Assembly: GCA_030018135.1 (NCBI GenBank)
Contig: JASEGJ010000001.1
Location: 1 to 64,000, forward strand
Direction of reading: 5' to 3'
DNA length: 64,000 bases
Source: Candidatus Hodarchaeaceae archaeon
GTDB taxonomy: Archaea; Hadarchaeota; Hadarchaeia; Hadarchaeales; Hadarchaeaceae
Shown here: one piece after another, positions 15,846 to 47,554 of the stretch
Numbering within the stretch: the stretch's first letter is position 1
How the letters are laid out: each line of letters opens with the position of its first letter
Translations under genes and position numbers: made by a program
Notes under the pieces: generated by a model
What the model was told of the DNA's origin: nothing
Seen by the model: only the letters and a program-made list of their open reading frames with translations
Databases searched by the model: none

Positions 15846-16025
15846 CTGCGCGCGAGGGGGCCCAAGTGCAAGCTTTGCGGGAGGGCGATCCAGATCATGA
15901 GCTACGACGCCGCCTACGTCAAGATCCTTAGGCCCGGCGAGGCGAGGGCGAGCTTCATCTGCTGGAGGTGCACTGAAGGGCTGCCGGGCGACAAGCTCAG
16001 GGAGGTCATGCCGGCCCAAGGGTGA
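15846..16025 (+). CDS. Small CxxC-CxxC zinc-finger protein, apparent CTG start (missed by ORF track)
   Basis: (L)RARGPKCKLCGRAIQIMSYDAAYVKILRPGEARASFICWRCTEGLPGDKLREVMPAQG*; GGGTG 5 nt upstream; TGA overlaps the GTG of the next gene. Confidence 0.65.
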   Translation: MRARGPKCKLCGRAIQIMSYDAAYVKILRPGEARASFICWRCTEGLPGDKLREVMPAQG

Positions 16026-17110
16026 TCTACTTGGCCAAAGCCACGCCCGAGGACCATGCGCTCATGACGCTCGCGATAAAGCGGCGGGGCAAGTTCGTCG
16101 ACCTACCGCACATCCAGGAGAAGCTGTCGCGCGACGCCGGCAGGAAGTTCTCGGAAAAGGAGGCCCTCGAGATCCTGAACTCGCTCGTCGATAAGGGCTG
16201 GGCCGAGGAGAAGGCGGAAGAATACGCCATCACCGACGCTGGCCGGGAGTGGTTCGAGGGGCGATGGCGCCAAGTCAGCAGGGAACTCAACCAAGATTAC
16301 CTCAAGGTCTATCGAGCGAAGCGATATTACCCTCATGTCGTCGACGCCCTGCTGGGGTTCTGCAAGGACCGCTATGTCTCGGTCTTCAGGCTCTTCACCG
16401 AGCGGGCCTGGCTCCAGCGCAAGCTCGGGCCGAAATACATCACCATAAAGAGCGAGCGCGACGTTCAGCAGTGGCTCGACATCCACGGCATAGACTTCAT
16501 CCCCTACATACACAAAATAGGCGAGGACAGGCCCGACTGGTTCGTCATCGACTTCGACGCGGGTAGGAAGGTGACGATGGAGCAAACGAAGGAGGTGGTG
16601 AAGAAGGCCTACGGGGTGCTGAGGGGCTACGGCATCGAACCTGCGATCAAATTCTCGGGTTCAAGGGGCTATCAGATATGGGCGCAGTTCGAACCACACG
16701 AGCTGCCCCGCGACTACAGGCCGCTCGAGCTCAAGGCGGGCAAGCGCGAGCGCAACCCGTTCAACTTCTACGCCGACATCGTGCGCTTCGTCGAGGCGAG
16801 GGTGGCAGAGGGCCTTCCCGGGCTGACCACGGCCGAGACCGCGAAGAAGGAGGAGCGCGTCGACAAGGTCTTGCTGGACGCCTCGATTATAAAGCCCATG
16901 GGGGACGTTCGGGCGCCCTACAGCATGCATTATAAAACCGGCCTGATCTCGATGCCGCTGGAGTTCAAGGAGTTGGGGCGCTTTAAGCCAGAGGATGCCG
17001 ATCCGGAGCTGGTGGCCGAGCGCTACCAAAAGCGGGGCAACGAGTTCGTGCTCGAGCCGACGGACGGCGGGGAGCTTTTCAAAGCGGTCGTCGAGTGGTG
17101 CAAAGCCTAG
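16022..17110 (+). CDS. wHTH fused to LigD-type primase-polymerase (AEP) domain
   Basis: N-terminal wHTH (LNSLVDKGW...YAITDAGRE); PDWFVIDFDAG, KFSGSRGYQIW, VLLD, RAPYS. Confidence 0.8.
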   Translation: MIYLAKATPEDHALMTLAIKRRGKFVDLPHIQEKLSRDAGRKFSEKEALEILNSLVDKGWAEEKAEEYAITDAGREWFEGRWRQVSRELNQDYLKVYRAKRYYPHVVDALLGFCKDRYVSVFRLFTERAWLQRKLGPKYITIKSERDVQQWLDIHGIDFIPYIHKIGEDRPDWFVIDFDAGRKVTMEQTKEVVKKAYGVLRGYGIEPAIKFSGSRGYQIWAQFEPHELPRDYRPLELKAGKRERNPFNFYADIVRFVEARVAEGLPGLTTAETAKKEERVDKVLLDASIIKPMGDVRAPYSMHYKTGLISMPLEFKELGRFKPEDADPELVAERYQKRGNEFVLEPTDGGELFKAVVEWCKA

Positions 17111-17971: not shown

Positions 17972-18146
17972 TGCTTAACCTTGCTATTTGTTCAAATGAA
18001 ACAAAACCCGTCGTTTTTTCTTTATAAAAGTTCATTCCAGAGTGTAGTTTTATTAATCGGAATAAATGGCCCCTCTCCCGAATAGCCGCCAAACGATTTC
18101 AGCCTTGGGCAAAACCTTGCCTAGGGCCTTCCTTACGGGTCTGAGC

Positions 18147-18454
18147 CTATCCCTTCGGAATCCAATTCACGACGATGCGCTTGATCGCACCATCGACGAA
18201 CACCAAGGGTGGATGCGGGCATGGCATTCGGGCCAGGTCTAGACCATGCTCTGGCCCGACCTCAAGAGAGTGTTGTAGAGGTCGGCCCTCACCTCGCCTG
18301 GGATACTTTGACTCGAGAAAACTAGGATGTCTAGGTCGGACTCGGCCGGCTTCCACTCGCCCCGCATCGATGAACCGAAGGGGAGGATCCGAAGCTGAGG
18401 ATATTTGCCATGCGCCCGCCTTATGAATTCCTCTAGGAAAGGCGCGGTTGTCAT
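18147..18454 (-). pseudogene. Minimal nucleotidyltransferase (MNT), frameshifted
   Basis: FGSSMRGEWKPAESDLDILV (GS..DxD); reading continues in another frame near 18265. Confidence 0.7.
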
Positions 18455-18794
18455 GGTTCCCCTTCGCGAAATTCCAAGTTATTTTTGAAAACCCGATATG
18501 CCCAAGAAACATCGATCTCGCCCATGTCCTCGTGCTTGATCCCAAGCGTGTGGCGTAGCTCGTGTATCACGATCTTGGCGAAAAGCTTCGGGTCAAACCC
18601 AAACCAGGAGGCCAGTAAACGGCTAGCCACTTTTTCTTGAAGGAAGAAAAGCCATCAGGAAAGGGCGAAGCTCGACTGTTAAACACGTTAACTTGATACC
18701 CGTTGGGATCCACGTGTTCGCGCTCAAAGCAGGCTAGGATGATTCTTTCGAGTTTCCTTGTTTCAATTTTTGTCGTGTTTTTTATTTGCATCAA
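18451..18794 (-). pseudogene. Small zincin-like metallopeptidase, frameshifted
   Basis: Second frame gives FDPKLFAKIVIHELRHTLGIKHEDM (HExxHxxGxxH); GGTTT duplication near 18600; ATGA overlap with MNT. Confidence 0.65.
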
Positions 18795-18817
18795 GCCTTT
18801 TTGTGAACTTTATAGGT

Positions 18818-18925
18818 GTCAAGAACCGCCGGTCAAAGACCGGCGGCATGAAATGGTTCGACTTCAGGATACTAACTCAGCTACGAGCTACGGGTTACCA
18901 CCAGTCAAAGACTGGTGGAATTCTT
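18818..18925. mobile_element. IS200/IS605-like miniature element (paired terminal hairpins)
   Basis: CCGCCGGTC-AAA-GACCGGCGG (18826-18846) and CCACCAGTC-AAA-GACTGGTGG (18898-18918), first preceded by GTCAA. Confidence 0.6.
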
Positions 18926-18988
18926 TCTTTAAAGTTTACGAAGAAACATTAATTAATGTCTTTTCTTAATGTTTAAAATGTGCAAATA

Positions 18989-19858
18989 ATGAGATTTTGG
19001 GTTCTCTCGGGGAGCGAAGAACATTGGGAGAGAGCATTAAAAGAAAATAAGTGGGGTGTGGGACCTAATCTGAAAAAACGTTGGGATAAGCTCTCACCGG
19101 GAGACGTTTTAGCTTTTTATGTGAAAGCCCCAATAAGCGAAGTAATTGGCTTTGGTATTGTGGAGCAGTCAGCTGAAGAGAATACACCTTATTGGCAGGA
19201 AGAGGTGGAAAGCAATCAGGTTATTTGGCCATTCAGGTGGTATTTTAGAATCGAACATCTATGTGAGAAGCCGTGGAAGGAGAATAAAGTTTTCATTAAG
19301 GATTTGAAGATAGAAATCCGCGCTGGGCTTAACTCTTTGACAAACAAGGATGTCATAAGTTCTCTGCTTACAAGGGCTAACGTGGCATGGAAAATTGATG
19401 TTTCACGCCTACTGGCTCCTGAAATAATTAGAACCGCAAAAGTGGAAGAGAAACCCGTTCGCGTGCATGATAAAATCAGAGATATGATACGTGAGATAGG
19501 TGAAGTGGATAATTGGATAGCTGAAACAGAGTATCCAATAGAGGATCTAGGCGATTTAGATGTTGTGTGGAGAAGGATCCCAACGGGCAATCCGACATAT
19601 GTATTCGAAGTACAGATCGGCGGCGATATCTTTCAAGCTTTGGTAAAATTAAAACACGCATTTGACGAGTGGAATAGCATCCCGTTTTTAGTAATAGACA
19701 AAAAATTAAGGAAAAAAGCTCGGGATAATATAGGAGGGGCATTCCACCAAATAAAGGACAAAATAAAGATCATAACCACCGAAGAAATTGAGGAATTGTA
19801 TAACATCCAAAGTAAAGATAAACAAATCAAAGACAGATTAAAATCTCCCTTTTGCTAA
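18989..19858 (+). CDS. EVE-domain protein with C-terminal PD-(D/E)XK-like nuclease domain
   Basis: W...KWGV...LSPGD.L.FYV...IGFG.V...IWPFR; EYPI..DLDVVW..YVFEVQ; AT-rich. Confidence 0.75.
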   Translation: MRFWVLSGSEEHWERALKENKWGVGPNLKKRWDKLSPGDVLAFYVKAPISEVIGFGIVEQSAEENTPYWQEEVESNQVIWPFRWYFRIEHLCEKPWKENKVFIKDLKIEIRAGLNSLTNKDVISSLLTRANVAWKIDVSRLLAPEIIRTAKVEEKPVRVHDKIRDMIREIGEVDNWIAETEYPIEDLGDLDVVWRRIPTGNPTYVFEVQIGGDIFQALVKLKHAFDEWNSIPFLVIDKKLRKKARDNIGGAFHQIKDKIKIITTEEIEELYNIQSKDKQIKDRLKSPFC

Positions 19859-19908
19859 TATTCCGTAGATTTTTGGAAGAGTTATTTTCATGAAATCCGG
19901 GCGAAAAC

Positions 19909-20670
19909 ATGCAGTCCTTCTGCCCTGTAAAGCTCGCCGACGACATCGAAAAAATCGTCGCCAAAGGGGAACTCAGAAAGTACTACCGCACGGCTAGGCC
20001 CGGCAGGTGGTATGGGGGCATAGCCAGCGCCGACTGCTGCGGCTGCTGCTTGCGATGCGTCTTCTGTTGGAGTGGCGCGCCCCGAGACAGCTCCGAAATC
20101 ATAGGAAAGTTCTACACGCCAGAACACATCCTCAGCAAGCTCGACGCCTGCGCCCGCAAGTTCGGCTACTCGCAGCTCAGGATCAGCGGGAACGAGCCGA
20201 CGATAGGCAAAGAGCACCTGCTTAAGCTCCTCGAACTCGTCCAGCAGACCGACTACTCCTTCATCCTCGAGACCAACGGCATCCTACTCGGCCACGACAA
20301 GGACTACGCTCAGCAACTGTCGAAGTTCGACAAGGTCCACGTTAGAGTCTCGATTAAAGGCGTCAATGAGCAGGAGTTCTCAACCCTTACCGGTGCAGCC
20401 CCCGAAGCATTCGAACTTCAGCTCAAAGCCCTGGGCAACCTCCTCGACGCAGGTGTCTCCTGCCATCCCGCAGTCATGCTCTCCTTCAGCCCCCGCGAAG
20501 GCCTCGATGAACTTTCGAGCAGGTTAAACGAGATTGATCCGAGCCTGTCGAAAAATGTGGAGGAGGAATACGTATTCTTATATCCCCATGTCGTCGAGAG
20601 GCTGAGGCGCGCGGGCTTGAGGCCGAGGGTAGCTTATAGCCCGAGCGGCATACCTCAGGAATTGGTATGA
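19909..20670 (+). CDS. Radical SAM protein (COG5014-like)
   Basis: GCCLRCVFCW, RISGNEPT, FILETNG. Confidence 0.85.
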   Translation: MQSFCPVKLADDIEKIVAKGELRKYYRTARPGRWYGGIASADCCGCCLRCVFCWSGAPRDSSEIIGKFYTPEHILSKLDACARKFGYSQLRISGNEPTIGKEHLLKLLELVQQTDYSFILETNGILLGHDKDYAQQLSKFDKVHVRVSIKGVNEQEFSTLTGAAPEAFELQLKALGNLLDAGVSCHPAVMLSFSPREGLDELSSRLNEIDPSLSKNVEEEYVFLYPHVVERLRRAGLRPRVAYSPSGIPQELV

Positions 20671-21005
20671 TAGAGTCGTACGATTTCGGCCGAATCGTGG
20701 TCGATGGTCGGGTTTACACCTCGGACGTCATCATCTTCCCAAATCGCATCAGGAGCGACTGGTGGCGGAGGGAGGGGCACAGGCTGTACATCGACGACCT
20801 CGAGGATGTCGTGAGGGAAAGGCCGGAGGTGCTCGTGGTCGGCACCGGCTACTCGGGGCTCATGGAGGTGCCCAAGGAGACGGCAGAATACATCAGGTCG
20901 AAGGGGATCGAACTCGTAGCCGAAAACACTCAAAAAGCGGTCGAAGTTTTCAATGAGCTCTCCAAATCGAAAAGGGTGATCGCCGCCCTACACCTAACGT
21001 GCTAG
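20667..21005 (+). CDS. Mth938-like domain protein
   Basis: IESYDFG.I.VDG, VVGTG..G, AALHLTC. Confidence 0.92.
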   Translation: MIESYDFGRIVVDGRVYTSDVIIFPNRIRSDWWRREGHRLYIDDLEDVVRERPEVLVVGTGYSGLMEVPKETAEYIRSKGIELVAENTQKAVEVFNELSKSKRVIAALHLTC

Positions 21006-21089
21006 CGGCTGGACCTTGGTCCGAGGTCTCGTCGCGGCCGGCCAGTGTTTCCACCTTATAAATCGCCCCCGCCAAAGGCACGGCGGACG

Positions 21090-21401
21090 ATGTCTGAGGT
21101 AAGACGAGGGATGGCGATGGCATACCTGCTCATTTTCGACCTGAAGGGGGGCAACACCGCCGGTAGGAGGCGGGTGAACAGGTACCTGAGGAAGGCCGCG
21201 AGGAGGGTTCAACAATCGGTGTGGGAGTTCAAGGACCTGCGGGCACTCATGGGCGCTGCCCGGCTGATATCGGCCGTCGGGGGGCGCGCGATGGCATTCG
21301 TCAGGGGGGACGCGCTCGTTTTGGAAATGTCTGAGGTAAGACAAGTCCTGAGCGACGCCTCGGGTAAAATATCAAGCTCGAAGGGGAGATGTCTTAGGTA
21401 A
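21090..21401 (+). CDS. Stand-alone Cas2/PaaX-middle/ChrB-N-like ferredoxin-fold protein (start 21090, 21111 or 21117)
   Basis: YLLIFDL, RRRVNRYLRK, RVQQSVWE, GGRA; TTATAAAT box at about 21056. Confidence 0.6.
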   Translation: MSEVRRGMAMAYLLIFDLKGGNTAGRRRVNRYLRKAARRVQQSVWEFKDLRALMGAARLISAVGGRAMAFVRGDALVLEMSEVRQVLSDASGKISSSKGRCLR

Positions 21402-21648
21402 GACATCCTCCGACCCGCGAACTTCCTTGCCAAACGCCCGGATGATTTCGTACAAGTGGGTGGCGTGCCGCGATTTAGCGTGTCTGAGGTAAGACAAGAT
21501 GTCTTAGTTAAGACACCAATTTTAGCGCGCGTCTTAGGTAAGACATATCGACCTCGGAGTTGTCTTACGTAAGACACGATGCAAGGTTGAGGGCTGTCGC
21601 GCGAAACATCAAAGGGGCGAGGGTCTGTCCCATGTCTTAAGTAAGACA
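21091..21648. repeat. Cluster of eight 16-bp palindromes TGTCTTA-NN-TAAGACA
   Basis: Copies start at 21091, 21328, 21390, 21481, 21500, 21530, 21561, 21633. Confidence 0.95.
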
Positions 21649-21701
21649 TGCCAACAAGCCGACTTCAATGCGAGGTCGAGCGCGACCACGAAATTTTTCG
21701 G

Positions 21702-23141
21702 CTACGGGAGGCTATACGCGACCCCCTCCTCAGGAACCATAGCGTTCTGAACCTCCCTCGCGAAAATCTCCGACCCCCTCGTGTGGACGGGGATCACCCG
21801 CTTGGGGTCGACCTGCCCGATGACCTCGAAAACCTCGTCGCGCGACAGGTGGCCGGAGCTGTGGAAGTAGCGATAGCTCAGGTTGAAGTGCTCGAGCCAG
21901 GACTTGAACCTCCTGAAGTCTATCGCCTGCTCCTCGGTGATGGGCTCGCTCGCCGCGTGGATGTAGACCCCCCGCCTCGGCTTCAAATCGACGAGGTTCT
22001 GCAAGCTGTAGAAGTCCATGTAGATGATCAGCTCGTCCATGTGCTCCCTTATCCAGTCGCACCGCCTGCTGTCCTCGAGCGCCAAGAGCTCCCTCTCCCA
22101 CTTGTGGTACTCCCTCTCGTCGTAGCTCCCCAGCTCCCTCTGCCCGACGTACACGACGAACTCATCCAAGCCGATGCCTATGATGTCGGACAGCTCCCTG
22201 ACGTAGTACGCGAGCTTTGTGGGCAAGGCCAGCCTGCGCCCGGCCATCGAGGCAACCTCACAAAATGTGCGAAGCCTATCGAAGTCCCTGGGCGGGAAAT
22301 CCACGAACACCGGTTGACCGGCCGCCGCCCCCACCGCCTCGAGGCTCCTGCGCCCGACCTCCTCCTCGCTCTCGAGCTTAGGCTGGGGCCTCCCAAGCAG
22401 TCGCTCGATCAGCTGATCCTCCTCGCCCTCCTCAACCCTCGTGCCCTCGATGATCAGCACGTCGATGTCCTCCTCGGAAACGCTCCGGATGAACTCCCTC
22501 GTCAGCCCGGCCCTCGGTCCGTGAAGCCTGAGGTCGCCGGTGTACGCTATCGTGCCCTCGCTGGCGTGAATCAAACAGCCGCAGGCACCCAGGGTCGAGT
22601 GGTCGACCTCGAAGGACCTTACCTCCAGCCCGGCTTCTTCGGGCGACCTAAACTCCCGCTCGAATTCCTCCCACTTGTTTGGGGACACGTACTCGCCGAA
22701 TGGCCTTACCTTGCCATAGCAGTACTCGCTGTCGAAGCCGCCCCGGGAGCTCTCCTGATATGCCTTTATTATCCTTCGGGCTGCGTCCGTGCAATAAACT
22801 GGGACTCGCCAGTCCAAGAACGGTATGCAGCCGGCGTGATCTAGGTGCGGATGGCTGAGCAGCACCCCATGGATCGACGGCTCAACGTATGCCATGCCGG
22901 TTGGCTTGAGGAGGTCCTCCCTGTAGAGCCCGCCCAACCTCGGCACCAGCTCGAACTCCAAGTAATCGTTGAGCCCGCTGGATGTGCGGGGCTGGAGGAA
23001 CTCAGCGTAGTACTTGCCCATCCGCGCGAAGTTCAGGCCGAAATCCAAGAGCAATTTGATGTCCCGGTCCTCGAGGAGGATCTTGTTGCCGCCTATCTCG
23101 TTCACGCCGCCGTAGAAGGTTAGGGTCGTCACCCGATCCAC
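21702..23141 (-). CDS. MBL-fold/beta-CASP ribonuclease (RNase J-like)
   Basis: GGVNEIGGN, DFG, SHPHLDH, VDHS, YTGDLRLHG, IEGT, HSSGH, PVHT. Confidence 0.88.
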   Translation of the reverse strand: MDRVTTLTFYGGVNEIGGNKILLEDRDIKLLLDFGLNFARMGKYYAEFLQPRTSSGLNDYLEFELVPRLGGLYREDLLKPTGMAYVEPSIHGVLLSHPHLDHAGCIPFLDWRVPVYCTDAARRIIKAYQESSRGGFDSEYCYGKVRPFGEYVSPNKWEEFEREFRSPEEAGLEVRSFEVDHSTLGACGCLIHASEGTIAYTGDLRLHGPRAGLTREFIRSVSEEDIDVLIIEGTRVEEGEEDQLIERLLGRPQPKLESEEEVGRRSLEAVGAAAGQPVFVDFPPRDFDRLRTFCEVASMAGRRLALPTKLAYYVRELSDIIGIGLDEFVVYVGQRELGSYDEREYHKWERELLALEDSRRCDWIREHMDELIIYMDFYSLQNLVDLKPRRGVYIHAASEPITEEQAIDFRRFKSWLEHFNLSYRYFHSSGHLSRDEVFEVIGQVDPKRVIPVHTRGSEIFAREVQNAMVPEEGVAYSLP

Positions 23142-23252
23142 CGCGATATTAACTGAGCGAATTCAAAAATAAGAGCGTATACCCGCTCGTCACTTCAAGC
23201 ATTGTTTTTCCCTTATAAGGGGTTCTGGGCCAACAGCCCGGCGGGAGACACG

Positions 23253-23582
23253 ATGGTGAGAAGGCTCCATTACCAAACCGAGGAACCCGTCACCACCGAT
23301 GAGCTCGAGCTGTTGAAGAAGGTCAAGGAGAGCTACAACGCGATGCACAGGCTGAGCAGCCGGAGGATTAGGCTCTGGAAAAAATCTGACATCCTCGAGT
23401 GCTTGGAGCCGCGGGACGCCGTCTGGGGTTTCACCACCGTCCGCGACGACGGGGAATCTGTGGTCCGGGCGATAAAGGAGATGTCGAGGGCGGCGCCGCG
23501 GTTGACCTGGATCTTGTACGATGAGGGCTCGGCCGGGGGCGGGGAAGCGGTGATCAAAAACGGGGAAATCGTGCATCAATAG
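23253..23582 (+). CDS. Hypothetical protein
   Basis: GGGAG SD, coding-like composition; no recognised motif. Confidence 0.55.
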   Translation: MVRRLHYQTEEPVTTDELELLKKVKESYNAMHRLSSRRIRLWKKSDILECLEPRDAVWGFTTVRDDGESVVRAIKEMSRAAPRLTWILYDEGSAGGGEAVIKNGEIVHQ

Positions 23583-23718
23583 CGGAAAAGTGCTCGAGGC
23601 CGACGGCGAAATCCGGCTTGGGTTAGAAGGGCAAAAATTGCTCGCCAGTTGCCCCACGGGCGAAAATGGCCCGAGGTCTAGCTCGGTGCAACCTTTATAG
23701 GTCGAGGCAAAAATCGAC

Positions 23719-24774
23719 TTGGGGTTGGGCTTGATCCTCACCTTTGAACAGGAAAAAACGATCATAAGAGCGCTCCTGCGGAAACTCGGCGCATCCGAGA
23801 AGGAAGCCGACGCCACGGCCGAAGTTTTAGCAGAGGGGGACCTGCGCGGCCTGGGCTCCCACGGCATACTAAGGCTGCCCTACATTTTGCGCGGGTTGAA
23901 GCGGGGGACGATAGCAGCTCGCGCGAAAGTGAAAATCGTGCGGGAGACGCATGCCACCGCGCTCATCGACGGCGGGCACGGGCTGGGCCACTACGTCGCG
24001 ACGAGGGCGATGGGGCTCGCCGTCGAGAAGGCGAAAAAGCAAGGCATCGGGGCGGTGGGCGTGTTCAACTCGAACCACTTCGGGATCGCCGGTTATTACG
24101 CGGAGCTGGCCATGCGCGAAAACATGATAGGCGTGGTGACGACGACGACCGACGCGCTGGTGCACCCTTGGGGCGGAGTGGAGCCCCTGCTCGGCACAAA
24201 TGCCCTCGCCGTAGGCATACCATCCGAGCCGCCCGTGCTGCTCGATATGGCGATGAGCGTCGCGGCCCGCGGCAAGCTGGTCGACGCCATGAAGCGGGGC
24301 GAGCGGATACCCGAGGGCTGGGCGATAGACAGCGAGGGCAAGCCGACGACGGACCCAGCGGAGGGCCTGCGGGGGGCGCTGAGCCCATTCGGCGGCGCCA
24401 AGGGCTACGCGCTGGCGTTCGTGCTGGAGCTGCTCGCCGGGCCGCTCGTGCGCGCCGGCGTCGGGCGGGGGGTGAAGGGGACGCTCGAGCCGGTGGAGGA
24501 CTTCTGCACGAAGGGGGACTTCATGATCGCCGTCGACCCCACGGCGTTCGTCCCGCTCGAGGAGTTCGAGTCACGCGTTCAAGAGTTCATCGCCGAGATC
24601 AAGAAATCCAAGAAGGCGCCGGGCGTTTCGGAGATAATGATCCCCGGCGAGCCGGAACTCAAGGCGAGGGAGCGAGCGTTGCGGGATGGCATCGAAATCT
24701 CTGAGGAGGTCTGGGGAGAGCTGAGGCAGATCGCGCAGGAGTTGGGCGTCGACATCGAGAAAATCGCCGCATGA
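23719..24774 (+). CDS. Ldh2-family dehydrogenase (malate/L-sulfolactate, ComC-like)
   Basis: DLRG..SHG, NSNHFG, GTN, GGAKGY, IPGE. Confidence 0.88.
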   Translation: MGLGLILTFEQEKTIIRALLRKLGASEKEADATAEVLAEGDLRGLGSHGILRLPYILRGLKRGTIAARAKVKIVRETHATALIDGGHGLGHYVATRAMGLAVEKAKKQGIGAVGVFNSNHFGIAGYYAELAMRENMIGVVTTTTDALVHPWGGVEPLLGTNALAVGIPSEPPVLLDMAMSVAARGKLVDAMKRGERIPEGWAIDSEGKPTTDPAEGLRGALSPFGGAKGYALAFVLELLAGPLVRAGVGRGVKGTLEPVEDFCTKGDFMIAVDPTAFVPLEEFESRVQEFIAEIKKSKKAPGVSEIMIPGEPELKARERALRDGIEISEEVWGELRQIAQELGVDIEKIAA

Positions 24775-24817
24775 GCGACATGCCGCGACGACCCAATCGT
24801 CGCCGTCGCCCACAAGT

Positions 24818-26149
24818 TCAAAGCTTGCGCAGGATGGCCTCCGCCGCGACGACCAGCGGCTCGATGCAATCGCTGACGGGCGGGGCGTAGCAGTACTCAA
24901 TTTGCGCGAGTTCCTCTACGGTCATGCCCTTCTTGATCGCGAGCGCGAGCAGGTTGATGCGCTCCGCCGTGCCCTCCGTGCTCAACACCTGCCCGCCGAT
25001 TATCCTGTGCTCGCTCGGCTCGACCAGGAGCTTTACCACGATGGGCTTAGCCCCGGGATAGTAGCGGGGCCTGTTCATTGCCCTTATTCTTCCGGTGATC
25101 GGATCGATGCCGGCCTCCCTGGCGCTGTGGGTAGTGGGCCCGGTGGATGCGACCTCCAAACCGTACGCACAGGTCACGACTGTGTTGAGCGTGCCCTCGA
25201 ATATGGCTTCGCCGCCGGCCGCATTTGTGCCGGCGACCTTGCCCATCCGTATGGCGGTCGTCGCGAGCTGGCTCAATATCGGGCGCTTCGTTATCAGGCA
25301 AAAGCTCTCGGCACAATCTCCCGCCGCGTAAACGTCGGCGGCGCTCGTGCGGAGATACTTGTCCACCCTGATCCCGCCGCTCTCGCCGAGCTCTATGCCC
25401 GCCTCCCTCGCGAGTTGGACCTCCGGCTTAACGCCAGTGGCGATTATCACCAAGTCGACCGGCAATTCCTGTCCTCCTGCAACGATCGAGCGTACCCGCT
25501 CATCGCCGCGGATCTCCTGTACCACCTGCCCGCAGAGGATATCGATGCCCTTCCCTCGCAGGAGCTTGGCCACTAAATCCGCCATGTCGGGATCCAGCAT
25601 GCCAGGTAGAACGGATGGCAGCGCCTCCACGATGGTAACGTCCAAACCCCTTTCCCTGAGCGCGGCAGCGGTTTCTATCCCTATCGGTCCAGCACCGATG
25701 ACCGCGGCTCGCTTTGCCCTCCTCAACGCCGAGATTATGGCTTGGCCGTCCTCGATCGTCTTGACTGAGTGGACGTTCCCCAGATCGATGCCGGGTATGG
25801 GCGGCTTGAAGGCATAGCTACCGGTCGCCAGCACAAGTGCATCGTACTCCAAGCTCTCGGGCCTTCGCGCCCGAATCGCTGAAACTTCGACCGTTCGATT
25901 GCGTACATCTAAAGCGATCGCCTCGGTCGCCGTGCGCACATCGACGTTCTCCAGCGGTGACGCTGGCTCGACCAACCTCCCGATATCAGGTACCTCGCCC
26001 CCGATCGCGAAGGGTATGCCGCAGGGGTGATAAACGGCGTAAGAGCGGCGCTCGATGACCGTTATCCTAGCCGTCCGATCGGTCTTGCGCGCCGCCGACG
26101 CAGCCGTCAACCCCGCTGATTCAAAGCCGATGATGACTACATGCCTCAA
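24818..26149 (-). CDS. FAD-dependent NAD(P)H oxidase/CoA-disulfide reductase family
   Basis: YHPCGIPF redox Cys, IGAGPIG, YAAGDC, YAPP C-terminus. Confidence 0.88.
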   Translation of the reverse strand: MRHVVIIGFESAGLTAASAARKTDRTARITVIERRSYAVYHPCGIPFAIGGEVPDIGRLVEPASPLENVDVRTATEAIALDVRNRTVEVSAIRARRPESLEYDALVLATGSYAFKPPIPGIDLGNVHSVKTIEDGQAIISALRRAKRAAVIGAGPIGIETAAALRERGLDVTIVEALPSVLPGMLDPDMADLVAKLLRGKGIDILCGQVVQEIRGDERVRSIVAGGQELPVDLVIIATGVKPEVQLAREAGIELGESGGIRVDKYLRTSAADVYAAGDCAESFCLITKRPILSQLATTAIRMGKVAGTNAAGGEAIFEGTLNTVVTCAYGLEVASTGPTTHSAREAGIDPITGRIRAMNRPRYYPGAKPIVVKLLVEPSEHRIIGGQVLSTEGTAERINLLALAIKKGMTVEELAQIEYCYAPPVSDCIEPLVVAAEAILRKL

Positions 26150-26152
26150 GTT

Positions 26153-27394
26153 TTATCCCATATCCGACGATCTGGCCTTAGACTGGCGCTTGGCCCGCGT
26201 TAGCATCTCGACCACGGGCATCGATTTCCCCGAGAGGAAGCTCACGCACGCGCCCCCGCCCGTGCTGATGTGCCCAATTTTATCCGCCACGCCCGCCGCC
26301 TGGGCTGCGGCCACCAAATGTCCCCCGCCTATTATCGTGAACGCCCTAGAATCAGCCATAGCCCTCAGCAATCCCAACGTCCCCCTCGCGAACGCCGGAT
26401 TCTCGAACATCCCAAATGGACCGCCGGCGACTATGGTCCTTGCACCCGCCATTACCCTAGAGTACCCACCTATCGTCCGACTGCCCACATCGCATATCAG
26501 CAGTTCGGTGGGAAGTTGCTCCAAGGTTAGCTCCCTCGGCTCCCCGTGGTCGTCGACGACCAAATCCACGGGCATCTTTATCCTCTCGCCGTACATGGCT
26601 AGCAGTTCCCCGGCCTGCGCGATCTCCGACTTAAAGCCCCTCTCGAGTAACAAGTTTAGGTTGGGTTTGCCTATATCCCGCCCCGCAGCCGCGAGAAAGA
26701 CCTGCCCAACCAAGCCTCCGGTGAGCAACTCATCGACCGCCCCGTTGTCGAACGCGTTCTCGATTATCCTGAGCGCGGTCTCGACCTTTGCGCCGCCCAT
26801 CGCATAGATGCAGGGTCGCTCCGGCTTGAGCGCCCTGCTCAGCCCCTTGATCTCGCGTTCCATCAAGCGCCCCGCGAAGGTGGGCAGCACGGCGGCGAAG
26901 CCAACCAACGACGGTTGGGAGCGATGTGCGGCTGCGAAGGCATCATTGACATACACATCGACCAGTCCAGCCAAGGTGCGGACGAGGTGAGTTTTAGCAA
27001 GCTCATCCGCCGGGCGGCTGAGGACCTCTTCGGCGCAGAAGCGTACGTTCTCCAGCAGAAGTATCTCGCCGGGTTTTAGGGCTTTTATGGCCTGACGGGC
27101 CGATGGCCCGAAGACATCCGCGATGTACTTGACCTCTTGCCCGATGACGTTTCTCAGCTTTTCGGCATGTTTTTCGAGCGTCGTGAAATCCTCGTTGCCC
27201 GGGCGCCCCTGATGGGCCAGCACGACGACCCTAGCTCCCATTTGCGAGAGTTCCTTCAGCGTGGGAACGCACTCGCGAATTCTGTTATCGCCGAGGATCT
27301 CCCCGGTCTTGGGATCGAGAGGCGAGTTGATGTCCACCCGCACCAGGACTGTCTTGCCCAGGACATCGGCGTCATCCAGCGTCGGAAATTCCAA
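26153..27394 (-). CDS. pgk: Phosphoglycerate kinase
   Basis: VRVDINSP, LLENVRF, NDAFAAAHR, ISTGGGA. Confidence 0.97.
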   Translation of the reverse strand: MEFPTLDDADVLGKTVLVRVDINSPLDPKTGEILGDNRIRECVPTLKELSQMGARVVVLAHQGRPGNEDFTTLEKHAEKLRNVIGQEVKYIADVFGPSARQAIKALKPGEILLLENVRFCAEEVLSRPADELAKTHLVRTLAGLVDVYVNDAFAAAHRSQPSLVGFAAVLPTFAGRLMEREIKGLSRALKPERPCIYAMGGAKVETALRIIENAFDNGAVDELLTGGLVGQVFLAAAGRDIGKPNLNLLLERGFKSEIAQAGELLAMYGERIKMPVDLVVDDHGEPRELTLEQLPTELLICDVGSRTIGGYSRVMAGARTIVAGGPFGMFENPAFARGTLGLLRAMADSRAFTIIGGGHLVAAAQAAGVADKIGHISTGGGACVSFLSGKSMPVVEMLTRAKRQSKARSSDMG

Positions 27395-27404
27395 CCCCTA
27401 CACC

Positions 27405-28427
27405 TCATTTGACTATGCCTAGGGCCTCGTTGGTCTTACGTATCGATCGCATCGCGTCCCGCTCGAGTTCTGTTGCGGCCCGGATCGCGTCGATGTTTTC
27501 AGGCACGACTATCGCCTCGTTATGCACCTGATATACGAGGTAGAACTCATCTTCCTTAACGGAGGCGATGTCCTGCCAAACCGCGACCTCCCACAGATCA
27601 GCCCTAGGCCTGCCCAGGTCTCGCATGAGCTCGATGACGCTATTCAGCCCCTGAAGTCCATCGGCTGCGCGGATGAGCAGGATCCTCGGGGCCTCCGCCA
27701 GGGTCTTTATGACCGTCTCGATCTTGGCCTGTTTTTTCAGCTCGACCACCGCGAAGTGTATGTGGCTTAAGTTGTACGGGCCCTTGGCCGCCATCGTGAC
27801 GATGTCCAGCTCGGGCATAACGGTTTGGACGTCCGGGCCCTGATGGCTGGGCACGTGCGTCTCGGGCACCACGGTGTTGATTATCCCCCCCTTGTGGCTC
27901 TCCCAGGGATCGACGGCGCGTCTCAGCAACACGGCCCGCGCCCTCTCGATGCCGTGCGCACGGTGAATCGCACCCAGTACGCGGCAGAGGCCGGTGGTGT
28001 TGCACGAGACCACGCGCAAGAAGTCCTTGCCCAGCGCCTCGCGGTAGTTGCACTGCGCCACAAACGAGGCCTCGACGAGTTCATGTTTTTCCCCGCCCTG
28101 AAAAATCGCCTTCACGCCCGCCTTTTCGTAGAGGGCTTTGTTCTTCGCGCCGATCCCGGCAGGGGTGCAGTCCACCACGACATCGACCTTCTCGAGCAGG
28201 TCGTCCAATGTTCCAGCAACTTCGACGCCGCCCTCGCGCATTTCATCGGCGGCTTCCCCCAGCGAAGCGTAAATCGGATACCCCTTCTTTGCCGCGACTT
28301 GGATGCGATAATCGGCTACGACATCGGAGACGCCGACCAATTTCATATCCTTTTGAAGCGCGACGGCATCCGAAACCCTTTTGCCGATAACCCCATAGCC
28401 ATTGACCCCAACCCTCACCCTTGCCAA
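27405..28427 (-). CDS. gap: Archaeal type II GAPDH
   Basis: GVNGYGVIGKRV, VVSCNTTG, ENIDAIRA. Confidence 0.97.
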   Translation of the reverse strand: MARVRVGVNGYGVIGKRVSDAVALQKDMKLVGVSDVVADYRIQVAAKKGYPIYASLGEAADEMREGGVEVAGTLDDLLEKVDVVVDCTPAGIGAKNKALYEKAGVKAIFQGGEKHELVEASFVAQCNYREALGKDFLRVVSCNTTGLCRVLGAIHRAHGIERARAVLLRRAVDPWESHKGGIINTVVPETHVPSHQGPDVQTVMPELDIVTMAAKGPYNLSHIHFAVVELKKQAKIETVIKTLAEAPRILLIRAADGLQGLNSVIELMRDLGRPRADLWEVAVWQDIASVKEDEFYLVYQVHNEAIVVPENIDAIRAATELERDAMRSIRKTNEALGIVK

Positions 28428-28521
28428 AATCTCACCCAGTTTCCCACGTTAGTAAAAGTTCGGCTCGTATAAAACTTTATCGCGGATTCTGCGGTCCAAA
28501 AATGACCGAAAGGCTTAATTA

Positions 28522-28550
28522 TTCAAAATTGAAAATTAATCGATCTTGAA
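28522..28550 (+). promoter_or_regulatory. Candidate RbkR operator (tandem TTCAA-NN-TTGAA-like sites)
   Basis: TTCAAAATTGAA (28522-28533) and ATCGATCTTGAA (28539-28550) directly upstream of the HTH-kinase start. Confidence 0.4.
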
Positions 28551-28562
28551 TAGGGTGAGAGA

Positions 28563-29212
28563 GTGCGAGATTTGCCGGTCCTCCTAGAGCTCGTTCGCGC
28601 TGGGGCGCACTTGGCACCGCGCCGACTCACCACCAAGGAGTTGGCCCGCAGACTAGGAATGTCCCAACCAACTGCGGCGCGCAGGTTGGCGGATCTTCAA
28701 GAGCGAGGCTTGATCGCCCGCAGGCTTGGACCGAGGGATCGAAACATAAGTCTGACACCGACGGGCTTGGCAACCTTGCGCTCGTTGCACTTAGAACTGA
28801 GTGCGGCCTTGGGTGAGAAGCCCCGTGCGATGGAGCTGGTGGGACAGGTTGTCTCAGGCCTCGGCGAGGGAAGCTACTACGTGAGCCAAGAGGGGTATCG
28901 GCGGCAGTTCAAACGCGAACTCGGGTTCGAGCCCTACCCCGGGACGCTCGACATCAGGCTTGACAAAACTTCGCTCGGACTCCGGGCGACGCTCTCGGAG
29001 CTGCCCGGCAAGCGCATCGAGGGCTTCAAGGTGCCCGAGCGCACCTTCGGACCAGTTGTGTGCTTCCCGGCCATCCTGCGCGGAACTCGGGTTGCAGTGA
29101 TCCTGCCGTCTCGCAGCCATCATACCGACGTGATCGAACTCATAGCCCCCAAAAACCTGCGCAGGAGTCTAAGGCTCGCGGACGGGGACGCCGTGAAGGT
29201 CGAGGTGAGAAT

Positions 29213-29216
<4 letters not shown>
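28563..29216 (+). CDS. ribK: HTH-fused CTP-dependent riboflavin kinase/regulator RbkR
   Basis: N-terminal HTH; GQVVSGLGEGSYY, PYPGTL, ELIAP.NLR. Confidence 0.92.
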
Positions 29217-30362
<1,146 letters not shown>

Positions 30363-30366
30363 GTAA

Positions 30367-30780
30367 TTGGTCAAGTTAGGAATCGTGGCGTCAGAATTTA
30401 ACTGGGATATCTGCGGACCGATGCTAGAGTTCGCGAGGCGACATGCGGCTTTCTTGGAGGCGGAGGTCGTTGCGGAGGTGCTTGTTTCGGGCGTTTTCGA
30501 GATCCCGTTGGCGGCCAAGAAGCTCGCGGAGAGGCAGGACATCGATGCCGTGGTCACCCTCGGAGCGGTGATAGAGGGCGAAACCGCACACGACGAGGTG
30601 GTGATGCAGCACGCCGCGAGAAAGCTGATCGACCTAGCGGTGCAGTACGGCAAACCCGTCGCGCTCGGCATCTCGGGCCCGGGGATGACCCGAGTGCAGG
30701 GCCTAGAGAGGGTGAACGAGTACGCGAGGCGGGCGGTGGAAGCGGCCGTCAAAACGGCGAGGAGCTTACAGAAGGTGTGA
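30367..30780 (+). CDS. ribH: Lumazine synthase
   Basis: IVASEFN, G.FEIP, LGAVIEGET.HD. Confidence 0.95.
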   Translation: MVKLGIVASEFNWDICGPMLEFARRHAAFLEAEVVAEVLVSGVFEIPLAAKKLAERQDIDAVVTLGAVIEGETAHDEVVMQHAARKLIDLAVQYGKPVALGISGPGMTRVQGLERVNEYARRAVEAAVKTARSLQKV

Positions 30781-31451
30781 GCTTGAACCCTAAAGTCGGC
30801 GTCTTGGCGCTCGGGTCGCACGAGGAGAGGCACGGCGCGGCCCTGCCGCCCGATACAGACGCCAAGCTCGCATCGCACGTCGCGCTCGAGGCCGCCAAAC
30901 GGGCCGGCGCGAAGTTCCTGGGCGTACTTCACTCGTCCTACGAGCTGCCGGACGTCGACACCGGTCGCCACCAGACGCTCGAGCAACTCCTCGATGAGCT
31001 CAGGGCAAGGCTGCTCTCGGCCAAGCAGGTGCTGGGCATTTGTGCGGTCGTCTTGGTCAACGGTCACGGGGGCAATGAACCGTTGCGGGAGCGCCTGCAG
31101 GCGCTCGAGCGAGATCTCGACATGCACGTCGCGTTCAACAACGCCATAGTTGAATTCGAGGGGCCTCACGCCGCCACCGGCGAGCTCAGCATGGGGGCTG
31201 CGATAGGCATCTGCGATGGCTCGAGGCTCGCGGAACACCTGAACTTCAGCAGCCACCCGGAAGTCGGGTTCGTCGGGCTAGAGGGCGCACGGAGGCGCTA
31301 TGCATGGGCAGAGCGACATGCGCAGGAGGTGAGCAGGCAAGGTGTTCGGGTGGACAAGTCCTTGGGCGTCGAACTCGTCGAGCGAGCGGTGTCGGATGTG
31401 ATCGAGGACATCCGCAAACTTTCGAATTTTTTGGGCGAGAGAGATTTTTGA
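30777..31451 (+). CDS. arfB: FAPy-nucleotide deformylase (creatininase family)
   Basis: ALGSHEERHGAALPPDTD, NGHGGN, HA..GE; riboflavin operon. Confidence 0.88.
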   Translation: MSLNPKVGVLALGSHEERHGAALPPDTDAKLASHVALEAAKRAGAKFLGVLHSSYELPDVDTGRHQTLEQLLDELRARLLSAKQVLGICAVVLVNGHGGNEPLRERLQALERDLDMHVAFNNAIVEFEGPHAATGELSMGAAIGICDGSRLAEHLNFSSHPEVGFVGLEGARRRYAWAERHAQEVSRQGVRVDKSLGVELVERAVSDVIEDIRKLSNFLGERDF

Positions 31452-31524
31452 TACAAGTGTATCAAAAATAATAAGCCTTCGCCGACGGTTTTCTGCTTAT
31501 TTGCTAATCGCCCTAGAGAGACGA

Positions 31525-31590
31525 TGTCTGAGGTAAGACAAGATGTCTTAGTTAAGACACCAATTTTAGCGCGCGTCTTAGGTAAGACAT
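31525..31590. repeat. Three more 16-bp palindromes; exact 66-bp copy of 21481-21546
   Basis: Sites at 31525, 31544, 31574 between convergent arfB and idsA. Confidence 0.95.
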
Positions 31591-31605
31591 CCGCCAATTT
31601 AAATG

Positions 31606-32604
31606 CTAAAATTCTCTTTTGATGGTAAAGTCTGCAAGCTCGAGCAACAGTCGCCTCGCCCTAGAGTCGGACAACGCCTTCAATTTCGACTTCGCGGAAG
31701 CCACCAATTCTCTGGCCTTATCTGCGGCATAGCCTATCGTTCCCGTGCGCTTTAGTACCTCGATTGCGGCCACGATCTCTGCTTCAGACGCCCGCTTGTT
31801 GCCGAGCGAGCGCAATAGGATTGCCCGATCCTTCGGTGCCGCCGCCTCAAGCGCGCGGACCACCATGAGCGTGCGCTTGCCCTCGCGGATATCGTTGCCT
31901 ATCGGCTTGCCGAACTTTTCCCGCTCACCGACGATGCCCAGCATATCATCTTGGATTTGAAACGCGATACCTACGAGCCTGCCGTATTCCGCGAGCGCCT
32001 TCACCTGCCTCGGCTTGCCATTGCCGAGCAAGGCCCCAACCCTCGCAGAGGCTTCCATGAGCGCGCCAGTCTTGCTGCTCACCATCTTTAGGTATTCCGT
32101 CTCGCTGACGTCATCGCGCCCCCCAAAAAGCATGTCCAGCGCCTGCCCCTGACATATCTCGAAGCTCGCCCTGCTCACCGTCTCGAAAAGCTCGACGACC
32201 CTGTCGCTCGGTAGATCTAGCCGCTTGGCATTCGCGGCCACCGCCTCGAACACCTTGGCAAAAAGTGCGTCACCGGCAATGATCGCGACGGGCTCCCCCC
32301 AGATCGTGTGCACTGTCTTGACGTTGCGTCGAAATTCATCCCTATCCATGATATCATCGTGGATGAGCGTGAAGTTGTGCAACAGCTCAAGTGCAGCGGC
32401 GGCCTCCATCGCATCTTCTACCCTGCCGCCAACCGCCTCGCACGAGAGCAGTGCTAGACAGGGGCGCAGTCTCTTGCCGCCGGCCTCCAGCAAGTGCCTC
32501 GATGCCCTCGCTAGGACCTCTGGCTCAGCGTCGCGCGGGAACCACTCATCGATCTCCTTTTCAACTTTTCTGGTCATCCCCTGCAGGTATTTCATCAATT
32601 CCAT
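31606..32604 (-). CDS. idsA: Geranylgeranyl diphosphate synthase
   Basis: GGKRLRP, LIHDDIMD, GQALD, FQIQDD. Confidence 0.95.
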   Translation of the reverse strand: MELMKYLQGMTRKVEKEIDEWFPRDAEPEVLARASRHLLEAGGKRLRPCLALLSCEAVGGRVEDAMEAAAALELLHNFTLIHDDIMDRDEFRRNVKTVHTIWGEPVAIIAGDALFAKVFEAVAANAKRLDLPSDRVVELFETVSRASFEICQGQALDMLFGGRDDVSETEYLKMVSSKTGALMEASARVGALLGNGKPRQVKALAEYGRLVGIAFQIQDDMLGIVGEREKFGKPIGNDIREGKRTLMVVRALEAAAPKDRAILLRSLGNKRASEAEIVAAIEVLKRTGTIGYAADKARELVASAKSKLKALSDSRARRLLLELADFTIKREF

Positions 32605-42559: not shown

Positions 42560-42654
42560 TGGTGGGGCCGCCGGGATTTGAACCCGGGTCTCCAGCACCC
42601 CATTCCAGATCCAAAGATTAGCTGGGAGGATTGGCCAAGCTACCCTACGGCCCC
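42560..42654 (-). tRNA. tRNA-Pro(GGG) with 17-nt intron at 32/33 (42603-42619), encoded CCA
   Basis: GGGGCCG acceptor, GGTTCAAATCC T-arm, CCAGC/GCTGG anticodon stem, full BHB motif. Confidence 0.9.
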
Positions 42655-47466: not shown

Positions 47467-47554
47467 TGGTGCGGGGGCGGGGATTTGAACCCCGGAACCC
47501 CTACGGGACAGGCTCCTCAAGCCTGCACCTTTGACCATGCTCGGCCACCCCCGC
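47467..47554 (-). tRNA. tRNA-Leu(GAG), encoded CCA
   Basis: CAGGC-TTGAGGA-GCCTG anticodon arm, long variable arm, GGTTCAAATCC. Confidence 0.95.

Follow-up and report, generated by a model that had tools for sequence, protein, structure and literature searches.

A Cas2-like gene set among 16-bp palindromes in Hadarchaeota: a candidate pairing of a small protein with its own DNA sites

The locus and its palindromes

The stretch of DNA analysed here (the window) comprises the first 64,000 nucleotides of contig JASEGJ010000001.1 (C11) in the genome of Candidatus Hodarchaeaceae archaeon, a member of Hadarchaeota (GCA_030018135.1; G000, 1.11 Mb, 45 contigs, 92.9% complete). It carries two clusters of short palindromes, with eight and three copies of the consensus TGTCTKA-NN-TAAGACA, and the first cluster encloses a small gene whose product appears to be a distant homologue of Cas2. 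A first-pass annotation, made from the sequence alone, had described the palindromes and proposed an archaeal centromere-like site; its assignment of the DNA to an archaeon fits the closest named loci with a homologous gene, which belong to Hadarchaeota/Hadesarchaea metagenome-assembled genomes (MAGs). All results below come from comparative sequence analysis of such genomes.

The eleven palindromes of that annotation were all recovered as matches to TGTCTTANNTAAGACA at up to two mismatches (Table 1), with a chance expectation of 0.02 and none of 100 shuffled sequences reaching eleven. The central dinucleotides GG, GT, CG and AG and the perfect palindrome at 21561 were confirmed as well, and so were the irregular gaps, which measure 221, 46, 75, 3, 14, 15 and 56 nt between the first eight sites. 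All ten sites with an asymmetric centre share the same orientation on the + strand. Two stretches of the window, one in each cluster, form a perfect 66-bp direct repeat in which the inter-site spacers are included (21481-21546 and 31525-31590). The earlier statement that most copies lie in 3' gaps between convergent genes holds for some sites and is only partly right, because three sites of the first cluster (21091, 21328 and 21390) touch an open reading frame (ORF) at 21117-21401 (+), the Cas2-like gene, which had been missed. The remaining five occupy the 300-bp gap before a convergent beta-CASP gene, and the second cluster is situated where a creatininase-family gene and a polyprenyl synthetase gene converge.

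The first site, P0, stands directly upstream of the ribosome-binding stretch and ATG of the Cas2-like gene, a position that makes it a candidate autoregulatory operator. The TATA-like box preceding it is a putative promoter element, and the same TTATAA(A) box with a similar leader is found ahead of the paralogues and standalone homologues of the gene. The intragenic site P1 has a counterpart at +205/+211 in 11 of 17 metagenome loci examined, with at most one mismatch in L114, L115, L117, L119-L121 and L123-L125, and the peptide matching P1 is also present in homologues.

Genome-wide, 27 sites of this TTA type (named after the inner bases of the arm) occur at up to two mismatches, clustered on C11 (14 sites), C41 (7) and C44 (5), with a single site on C17 that is probably due to chance; the reversed-pattern control gave none. 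Two other readings of the window were considered and rejected. The 66-bp repeats do not bound an integrated element, because the 10 kb between them hold ordinary metabolic genes (Ldh_2, pyridine-nucleotide disulphide reductase, PGK, GAPDH, riboflavin synthesis), and no tRNA gene is near. The palindromes are likewise no CRISPR array, the repeats being only 16 bp long, the gaps ranging from 3 to 221 nt and Cas1 being present only as a fragment. A search of positions 20500 to 32000 gave no Rfam family match at E-values up to 1; the RNA folding z-score of the palindrome region is high, a value that is uninformative because any set of palindromes folds well.

Table 1. Positions of the Cas2-like gene, the palindromic sites and neighbouring features in the window
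Feature	Position	Strand	Remarks
TATA-like box TTATAAAT of the Cas2-like gene	21056..21063	+	read from the sequence
Site P0	21091..21106	+	2 mismatches; begins 28 nt past the end of the TATA-like box
Cas2-like gene	21117..21401	+	database gene call of 94 amino acids (P0001); inside the first palindrome cluster
Site P1	21328..21343	+	imperfect 'A' form with G at position 6; in C-terminal codons, reads MSEVRQ
Site P2	21390..21405	+	overlaps the stop codon of the Cas2-like gene
66-bp module A-N3-B-N14-C, copy 1 (sites P3, P4, P5)	21481..21546	+	perfect repeat of 31525-31590; sites start at 21481, 21500, 21530
Site P6	21561..21576	no strand	perfect 16-bp palindrome
Site P7	21633..21648	+	54 nt from the stop of the convergent beta-CASP gene
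Metallo-beta-lactamase / beta-CASP gene	21702..23141	-	convergent neighbour of the site array
Gene X, 110 amino acids	23250..23582	+	no family (no Pfam match); ancestral upstream neighbour of the Cas2-like gene in relatives
66-bp module, copy 2 (three sites, gene-less)	31525..31590	+	repeat of copy 1; sites start at 31525, 31544, 31574

A distant homologue of Cas2

The product of the gene matches the Cas2 families below their thresholds, with an E-value of 1.6e-4 and 22.2 bits against a cut-off of 23.8 for PF09827, and an E-value of 0.002 and 18.3 bits against a cut-off of 24.5 for TIGR01573. PADLOC returned weak Cas2 models only, and a profile search of PDB was similarly weak. The AlphaFold (AF2) model, with a predicted local distance difference test (pLDDT) score of 84, places strands at residues 5-10, 31-34, 37-40 and 59-64 and helices at 17-29 and 43-55. 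Its top Foldseek matches in PDB are all Cas2 proteins, 8d3l and 5xvn among them, with a probability of 1.0 and a template modelling (TM) score of about 0.5, and VapD ranks 18-19. The model supports a Cas2 fold and the description of the product as a distant Cas2 homologue; it falls within the Cas2/VapD fold, and 36 of 37 homologue rows keep the aspartate that stands at the end of strand 1, while G011_C40 has an Asp-to-Asn variant. Cas2 proteins of solved structure form dimers and touch duplex DNA within the Cas1-Cas2 complex, and this aspartate is catalytic in Cas2 nucleases.

Ratios of non-synonymous to synonymous substitution (dN/dS) of 0.08-0.21 in seven pairs of homologues indicate that the Cas2-like protein is real and under purifying selection. 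The 16-mers remain intact even in the more distant pairs, whose synonymous differences amount to 45-65% of sites. The family is small: 23 matches were found among 5.8 billion clustered proteins, and phmmer retrieved 23 relatives among 1.84 billion representatives at E-values up to 1e-3. Matches from the ESM Atlas all score below 0.8 and serve as leads only. The source genome is without a canonical Cas2, and its Cas1 consists of a C-terminal fragment on C40, with none adjoining the Cas2-like gene. If the pairing with the palindromes is real, calls of a 'solo Cas2' in Hadarchaeota should not be annotated as CRISPR remnants. A full-text literature search, with supplements outside its scope, returned no Cas2 homologue with cognate palindromes and no such repeats in Hadarchaeota.

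Palindromes accompany the gene and change with it

The Cas2-like gene is found in 17 of 41 relative genomes and in 25 of the 66 genomes of the phylum Hadarchaeota. Among 37 homologous loci from Hadarchaeota genomes and metagenomes, 33 are flanked by palindromes of the form TGTC..GACA or TGACATA..TATGTCA, which corresponds to 32 of 36 distinct loci because gc032 equals G007. Left out of the 37 rows were L116, whose match figures are those of L115, the truncated or partial L025 and L027, and L033-L035, which represent the loci of G026, G040 and G012 (identical tblastn figures); the protein tree was built without G010 and gc032. The numbers of palindromes follow the presence of the gene: the median number of TGTCNNANNTNNGACA matches is 7 in the 25 phylum genomes with the gene versus 1 in the 41 without, and at least five matches occur in 20/25 versus 9/41, while the reversed-pattern controls give 0-2. 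Copy numbers range from 5 to 33 per genome.

The inner bases of the palindromes, written x in TGTC-xxA-NN-Txx-GACA, differ between lineages. The types TTA, TCA, CTA, CAA, AAA and ACA were found, together with an asymmetric TTA/GTA form and a TGACATA-GC-TATGTCA form, and these types follow the clades of the protein tree. Between orthologous loci that share their flanks, both arms of almost every one of about nine sites differ, being TTA in the first set and TCA in the second. Ahead of helix 1, the loop has the sequence GG-N-TA with the TTA set and GG-S-TA with the TCA set, Asn being paired with T in 6/6 rows and Ser with C in 8/8 rows.

The arrangement of the sites around the gene is also recurrent. 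Homologues have a site or doublet at -26/-45 relative to the start, and the layout is constant in the closest metagenomic relatives, which have doublets (19 bp from start to start) at -153/-134 and -45/-26, around the TATA box and leader, with more sites at +211, +241, +275 and +308/+327. Since the upstream doublet lies outside the gene's own transcript, recognition at the level of DNA is favoured. The same is favoured by stable imperfect half-sites, which give non-pairing oppositions: the imperfect form with G at position 6 in the source genome and TGTCTTATTTACGACA in G005 recur in many copies, and such forms would weaken a hairpin and could be tolerated as unequal half-sites. Among 124 neighbouring site pairs no more than 120 bp apart, counted with overlapping loci possibly included twice, 32 are spaced at 19 bp and 48 at 30-34 bp. 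Two metagenome loci have 6-8 sites with a 30-bp period and mostly unique 14-nt spacers, and the doublet of an imperfect site, N3 and a perfect site recurs with other inner bases in G002, G003, G007, G011 and G014.

Two further arrangements were seen in relatives. A hybrid 16-mer with one CTA arm and one ACA arm is repeated head to tail with a 17-bp period, five times in G013 (C38:8557-8640) and twice in G003 (C19:11787-11819), tighter than any array in the window. An inverse type, GGTGACA-NN-TGTCACC, is present in L136 (G011) and L144 (G005) downstream of a polyprenyl synthetase gene, the same gene whose 3' end bears the second cluster of the window in the source genome.

Paralogues and gene-less copies in the source genome

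Three Cas2-like genes are present in the source genome, the window copy and two paralogues on C44 and C10 that are 40% identical to it. The window gene is flanked by TTA-type sites, whereas the paralogues are flanked by TGTCACA-NN-TGTGACA sites (ACA type), of which two precede a similar TATA box and leader and a third lies at the stop; C10 has two additional sites behind the gene. The TTA and ACA arms make the two commonest perfect 7-2-7 palindromes of the genome (14 and 11 copies).

The clusters that lack a gene are copies of the array flanking it, as the comparison of their sequences shows for 31525-31590, C41 and C44. The A-N3-B(-C) module occurs four times in the genome, twice in the window and once each on C41 and C44, the latter two being near-identical across about 100 bp. 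The left edge of the second window copy repeats the bases to the left of P0, five of them being the same, and this copy looks like P0 joined to P3 with the gene deleted. In G003 and G013 the same convergent gene pair as at 31.5 kb is separated by a shorter, palindrome-free gap (sequences compared by eye), for which reason 31525-31590 is regarded as a lineage-specific insertion. The ACA type behaves similarly, with a full cassette on C10 and a cassette on C44 cut exactly at palindromes; the two hardly differ along a stretch of about 330 bp that has palindromes at both limits. C6 and C22 carry gene-less ACA-type versions, some 115 bp long and made up of left flank, two sites and right flank, and C23 carries an internally deleted copy. 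On contigs from hot-spring metagenomes the gene and array are kept at about 93% identity, with breaks within palindromes. One contig has the 73-nt spacer between P2 and P3 replaced by 16 nt resembling a C41 spacer; this is a single contig of depth 2.9 with 80% likeness and may stem from another locus. The settings of the clusters are diverse: a divergent promoter gap (C41), the region upstream of an S24e gene (C44) and the convergent gaps of the window.

Other palindromes of the source genome were noted alongside. At 31449-31464, TGATACAAGTGTATCA overlaps the stop of the creatininase-family gene and belongs to a third family, TGATACA-NN-TGTATCA, with 10 sites at up to two mismatches, all single, in A/T-rich contexts on 8 contigs; these sites have the appearance of common transcription-factor operators with no relation to the Cas2-like system. 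Four contig ends (C22:30, C26:64, C39:471, C40:63991) bear a longer repeat that contains CCGCACT-NN-AGTGCGG and is probably the true CRISPR repeat of the genome, distinct from the palindromes linked to the Cas2-like genes. Two paralogous genes (C1:11355, C27:293) have an ACA-type palindrome within their coding sequence; the 16-mer is identical and the flanks have diverged, and a third paralogue adjoins the Cas2-like copy on C44.

Interpretation of the palindromes

We lean, if only slightly, towards the explanation that the Cas2-fold protein recognises the palindromes as its cognate DNA sites, which serve as an autoregulatory operator and as dispersed arrays. The Cas2-like protein would bind the 16-bp dyad TGTC-TKA-NN-TAA-GACA as a symmetric oligomer, with the inner bases being read by the loop before helix 1 and the arginine-rich start of the helix. 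At P0, just past the TATA-like box, it would repress its own gene; the array behind the gene would also be bound, and arrays may be occupied by phased multimers. The gene-less clusters (31525-31590, C41, C44) would have arisen by duplication of the flanking array into other intergenic places, and the copies may be kept uniform by selection for binding, by gene conversion or by both.

Several observations weigh against this explanation. Four homologue loci (G001, G006, G016_C13, G023_C8) are without palindromes, and nine of the 41 genomes in which the gene was not detected still have at least five matches (13 in G052); of these nine, five have a completeness of 66-87% and four are f4 genomes, at 65-87%. 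Mann-Whitney values overstate the case for an association of gene and palindromes because related genomes are not independent. The co-variation of Asn and Ser with the site includes one well-supported and three possible independent contrasts, too few for it to reach significance. The conserved aspartate of strand 1 makes nuclease activity possible, and to our knowledge, with which the literature search concurs, there is no report of a Cas2 that binds a specific sequence. Relative to promoters or genes, the dispersed clusters show no common placement, so that a regulatory role is unsupported there.

A bolder reading, in which the Cas2-fold protein is the dedicated partner, binder or nuclease, of self-propagating palindromic repeats outside CRISPR-Cas, is tentative, and we think it more doubtful than probable. 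If true, it would describe a new class of minimal protein-repeat element in archaea and a living relationship of Cas2 to repeats that could precede or parallel the recruitment of Cas2 to CRISPR arrays, with a simple code in which a loop Asn specifies T.A and a loop Ser C.G at position 6 of the site.

The main rival assumes the same partnership and assigns another activity to the protein. In an active selfish element, the Cas2-like protein would be a site-specific nuclease or nickase at the palindromes, and the breaks would drive copying of the cassette by gene conversion or transposition, as a mechanistic analogue of REP/RAYT or of homing endonucleases. Much of the evidence on copies could be read in this way: the near-identity of C44 and C10 over about 330 bp is bounded by palindromes, gene-less derivatives of about 115 bp lie on C6 and C22 and an internally deleted one on C23, window copy 2 resembles P0 joined to P3, the 66-bp repeat is perfect and the C41 and C44 modules nearly so, 31525-31590 is inserted relative to G003 and G013, and the different spacer of a related strain is bounded exactly by two sites (the one contig of depth 2.9 and 80% likeness). 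The strand-1 aspartate kept in 36 of 37 rows, the patchy distribution over 25 of 66 genomes and the switching of all sites in concert, as frequent conversion would produce, point in the same direction. We nevertheless judge it unlikely. Many copies of the gene stand at one conserved place (PrimPol-like, X, Cas2-like, Ldh_2) across genera and even families, from which largely vertical inheritance follows; no target-site duplications were seen by eye at the ends of C44 and C10; the doublets stand on both sides of the promoter, an arrangement typical of a regulator and not of transposon ends; the copy numbers of 5-33 per genome are low; a search of phage and plasmid collections found no homologue of the Cas2-like protein; and strand transfer by a hydrolytic nuclease of 70-95 residues has no known route. 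A further rival is a system working in RNA, in which hairpins in the 5' leader and 3' tail of the transcript would be bound or cut by a Cas2/VapD-like endoribonuclease and which could take the form of translational autoregulation, RNA processing or a type III toxin-antitoxin-like neutralisation by the repeat RNA. Some Cas2 proteins and VapD are ribonucleases, and VapD structures are among the fold matches. The asymmetric sites are co-oriented within each cluster of the source genome and, at 4 of 5 loci, point the way the upstream gene is read. Most loci have a site directly beside the ribosome-binding stretch, both arms co-vary, and the array behind the gene recalls the repeat arrays with toxN. 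The closest relatives, however, have one doublet upstream of the TATA box, beyond the transcript; a 7+7 stem with a 2-nt centre cannot fully close, and the recurrent variants oppose G.A, T.C or C.A and not wobble pairs. The stems are A/U-rich for a lineage apparently of hot springs (a habitat weakly indicated by run labels of small share), Rfam gave no match, the high folding z-score follows trivially from palindromes and the irregular spacing is unlike tandem repeats of the toxI type. An RNA-level system thus seems improbable to us.

A centromere or chromosome-organisation site, loaded by a ParB/Noc-like protein or bound by the Cas2-like protein itself without ParB, was the proposal of the first-pass annotation, and we now give it only a very small probability. 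Bacterial parS is a 16-bp palindrome, and parS sites lie inside genes, including the binder's own gene, in some bacteria; the palindromes described here are clustered, some are intragenic and one is inside the gene of the supposed binder. Plasmid centromeres of the iteron type are bound by small dimeric proteins and are resembled by the arrays of 6-8 sites with a 30-bp period behind the gene in two metagenome loci, and a PrimPol-like gene is the ancestral neighbour. The proposed resemblance of 12/16 to parS rests on the parS consensus quoted in that annotation, and none of our results links the window palindromes to parS. ParB_N (PF02195) had no match in the source genome at its 92.9% completeness, in a search that was positive in 11 of 14 control genomes. 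Six ParA/MinD-like (AAA_31) matches lie on C18, C43, C22 (56 kb) and C33, none of them beside a cluster or the Cas2-like gene, and the window ORFs near 21 kb and 31 kb include no ParA-type ATPase. The Orc1/Cdc6 genes are at about 18 kb on C22 and about 139 kb on C11, more than 100 kb from the window clusters at 21-32 kb of C11, a comparison limited by the assembly in 45 contigs. The gene was not found in 41 of the 66 phylum genomes, the near-complete G008 and G025 included, and at least two specificities coexist per genome. For these reasons the centromere-like system is no longer favoured. What survives of the proposal is a dimer-type target of a novel protein, which the sites do resemble, without the ParB/Noc part. 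Moreover, the clusters are recent insertions and not conserved positions; the gene-less ones are recent copies of the flanking array, which comes close to the confinement to copies of a mobile element that the annotation had itself named as speaking against a centromere. Ordinary operators of an unrelated transcription factor, with the Cas2-like gene merely a member of the regulon, would account for intergenic palindromic 16-mers and have a parallel in the operator-like TGATACA-NN-TGTATCA family of the same genome. Yet across 33 loci the type of palindrome follows the sequence of the neighbouring Cas2-like protein and changes together with it, palindrome numbers track the presence of the gene, and the only other conserved neighbour, gene X, is present in G018, G022 and G024, which have 0, 0 and 1 palindromes, and was not found in G026, which has 22. 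We therefore consider an unrelated factor highly improbable, and gene X was rejected as the binder on the same counts.

Neighbouring genes and other loci

In most genera the Cas2-like gene is preceded by a conserved pair, the PrimPol-like gene and X. L031 has the complete order PrimPol-like, X, Cas2-like, Ldh_2, which L015-L022 and L032 share in part; X itself is present in 21 of 24 genomes of the family, some of them without the Cas2-like gene. In the window, a PrimPol/LigD-pol-like protein with an N-terminal winged-helix-like part, 69-79% identical in relatives, is encoded at 16022-17110. Between the PrimPol-like and Cas2-like genes, where relatives have X directly, lies an A/T-rich island (18000-20000, GC content 0.41-0.48 versus about 0.58 around it), which is possibly an insertion and holds an ORF of 292 residues at 18980-19858 (weak PRK00809-type match) and a 27-nt palindrome at 18928-18977. 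A TTA-type site is also found downstream of the orthologue of the beta-CASP gene in G026 (L066).

A TGTC..GACA 16-mer was also found in the coding sequence of a radical-SAM gene, which we take to be LipS-like, at C11:128090-128105. A site is found at these codons (D-V-L-x-x-T) in 17 of 30 orthologues (L081-L109), being perfect in 6, with one arm mismatch in 6 and degenerate in 5; the other 13 have none. In G002, G011 and G005 the site is of the genome's own palindrome type, and in seven genomes it has the asymmetric form TGTCTTATTTACGACA or a variant differing by 1-2 bases (exact in four), which is also the dispersed repeat of G005. The site equals the genome's own Cas2-linked type in three of eight genomes of known type, with one near match, and because of this low proportion it is not counted as evidence here. 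The site may represent a conserved target, have arisen by gene conversion or have given rise to the asymmetric repeat. ARAGORN further predicted a 95-nt tRNA-Ile with anticodon AAT at 42560-42654, whose length suggests an intron and whose anticodon call may be wrong, and an 88-nt tRNA-Leu(GAG) at 47467-47554.

Comparison with known systems

The Cas2 fold has so far been known only for building the core of the spacer integrase and as a weak nuclease or a relative of toxins. If the pairing with the palindromes is real, it gains a role in reading a 16-bp sequence specifically, and experiments could address how Cas2 became associated with palindromic repeats. The natural variants (TTA, TCA, CTA, CAA, AAA, ACA) would then represent a ready specificity panel for a very small DNA-binding scaffold.

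Among toxin-antitoxin systems of type III, ToxIN is similar in having a small nuclease-fold protein beside an array of short repeats; here the palindromes are irregularly spaced, lie on both sides of the gene, partly beyond the transcript, and also occur without the gene. ParB-parS, Noc-NBS, SegB and AspA share 16-bp palindromes in few to tens of copies per genome, some of them intragenic, and probably a symmetric reader. The Cas2-like system differs from this group in the lack of ParB_N, of an adjacent ParA and, as far as an assembly in 45 contigs can show, of origin linkage, in being dispensable and variable in specificity, and in a match of 12/16 to the parS consensus quoted in the first-pass annotation. 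With CRISPR it has in common a Cas2-fold gene beside clustered short palindromes, which at two metagenome loci are regular, with a 30-bp period and mostly unique 14-nt spacers. Cbp1 of Sulfolobales, which is reported to bind each of the repeats in an array at the level of DNA (PMC10883916), offers a precedent. Unlike CRISPR, the 16-bp repeats lie on both sides of the gene at irregular spacings (3-221 nt in the window), Cas1 is not adjacent, the protein stays below the cut-offs of the Cas2 families and the CRISPR repeat of the source genome is a different and longer one.

In its local architecture the system resembles an autoregulated repressor with its operators, and in its genomic behaviour it comes closest to REP/RAYT. 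Autoregulated archaeal repressors likewise have a dyad just downstream of or beside the TATA box and paired sites that bracket the promoter; their fold is helix-turn-helix or ribbon-helix-helix, whereas here it is Cas2-like, and long arrays and gene-less copies are added. REP/RAYT systems consist of dispersed extragenic palindromes and a usually single-copy gene flanked by its own repeats, with co-variation of repeat and protein, possibly several classes per genome, and vertical inheritance with patchy loss. The Cas2-like system shows the same combination, with dispersed singles, doublets and clusters, a mostly single-copy flanked gene, co-variation, multiple classes per genome and vertical inheritance with patchy loss. 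Identity with RAYT/IS200 was rejected, the sole PF01797 (Y1_Tnp) match in the source genome being a 54-residue fragment at C10:13220. Such repeats with a cognate protein are well studied in bacteria, and we know of no description in archaea; a real pairing would therefore place a REP/RAYT-like repeat-plus-protein system there. It would differ from its bacterial counterparts in a partner of 70-95 residues with the Cas2 fold and not an HUH/Y1 transposase, in tens of copies and not hundreds, in 16-bp near-perfect dyads, in doublets that bracket the promoter and in its archaeal host.

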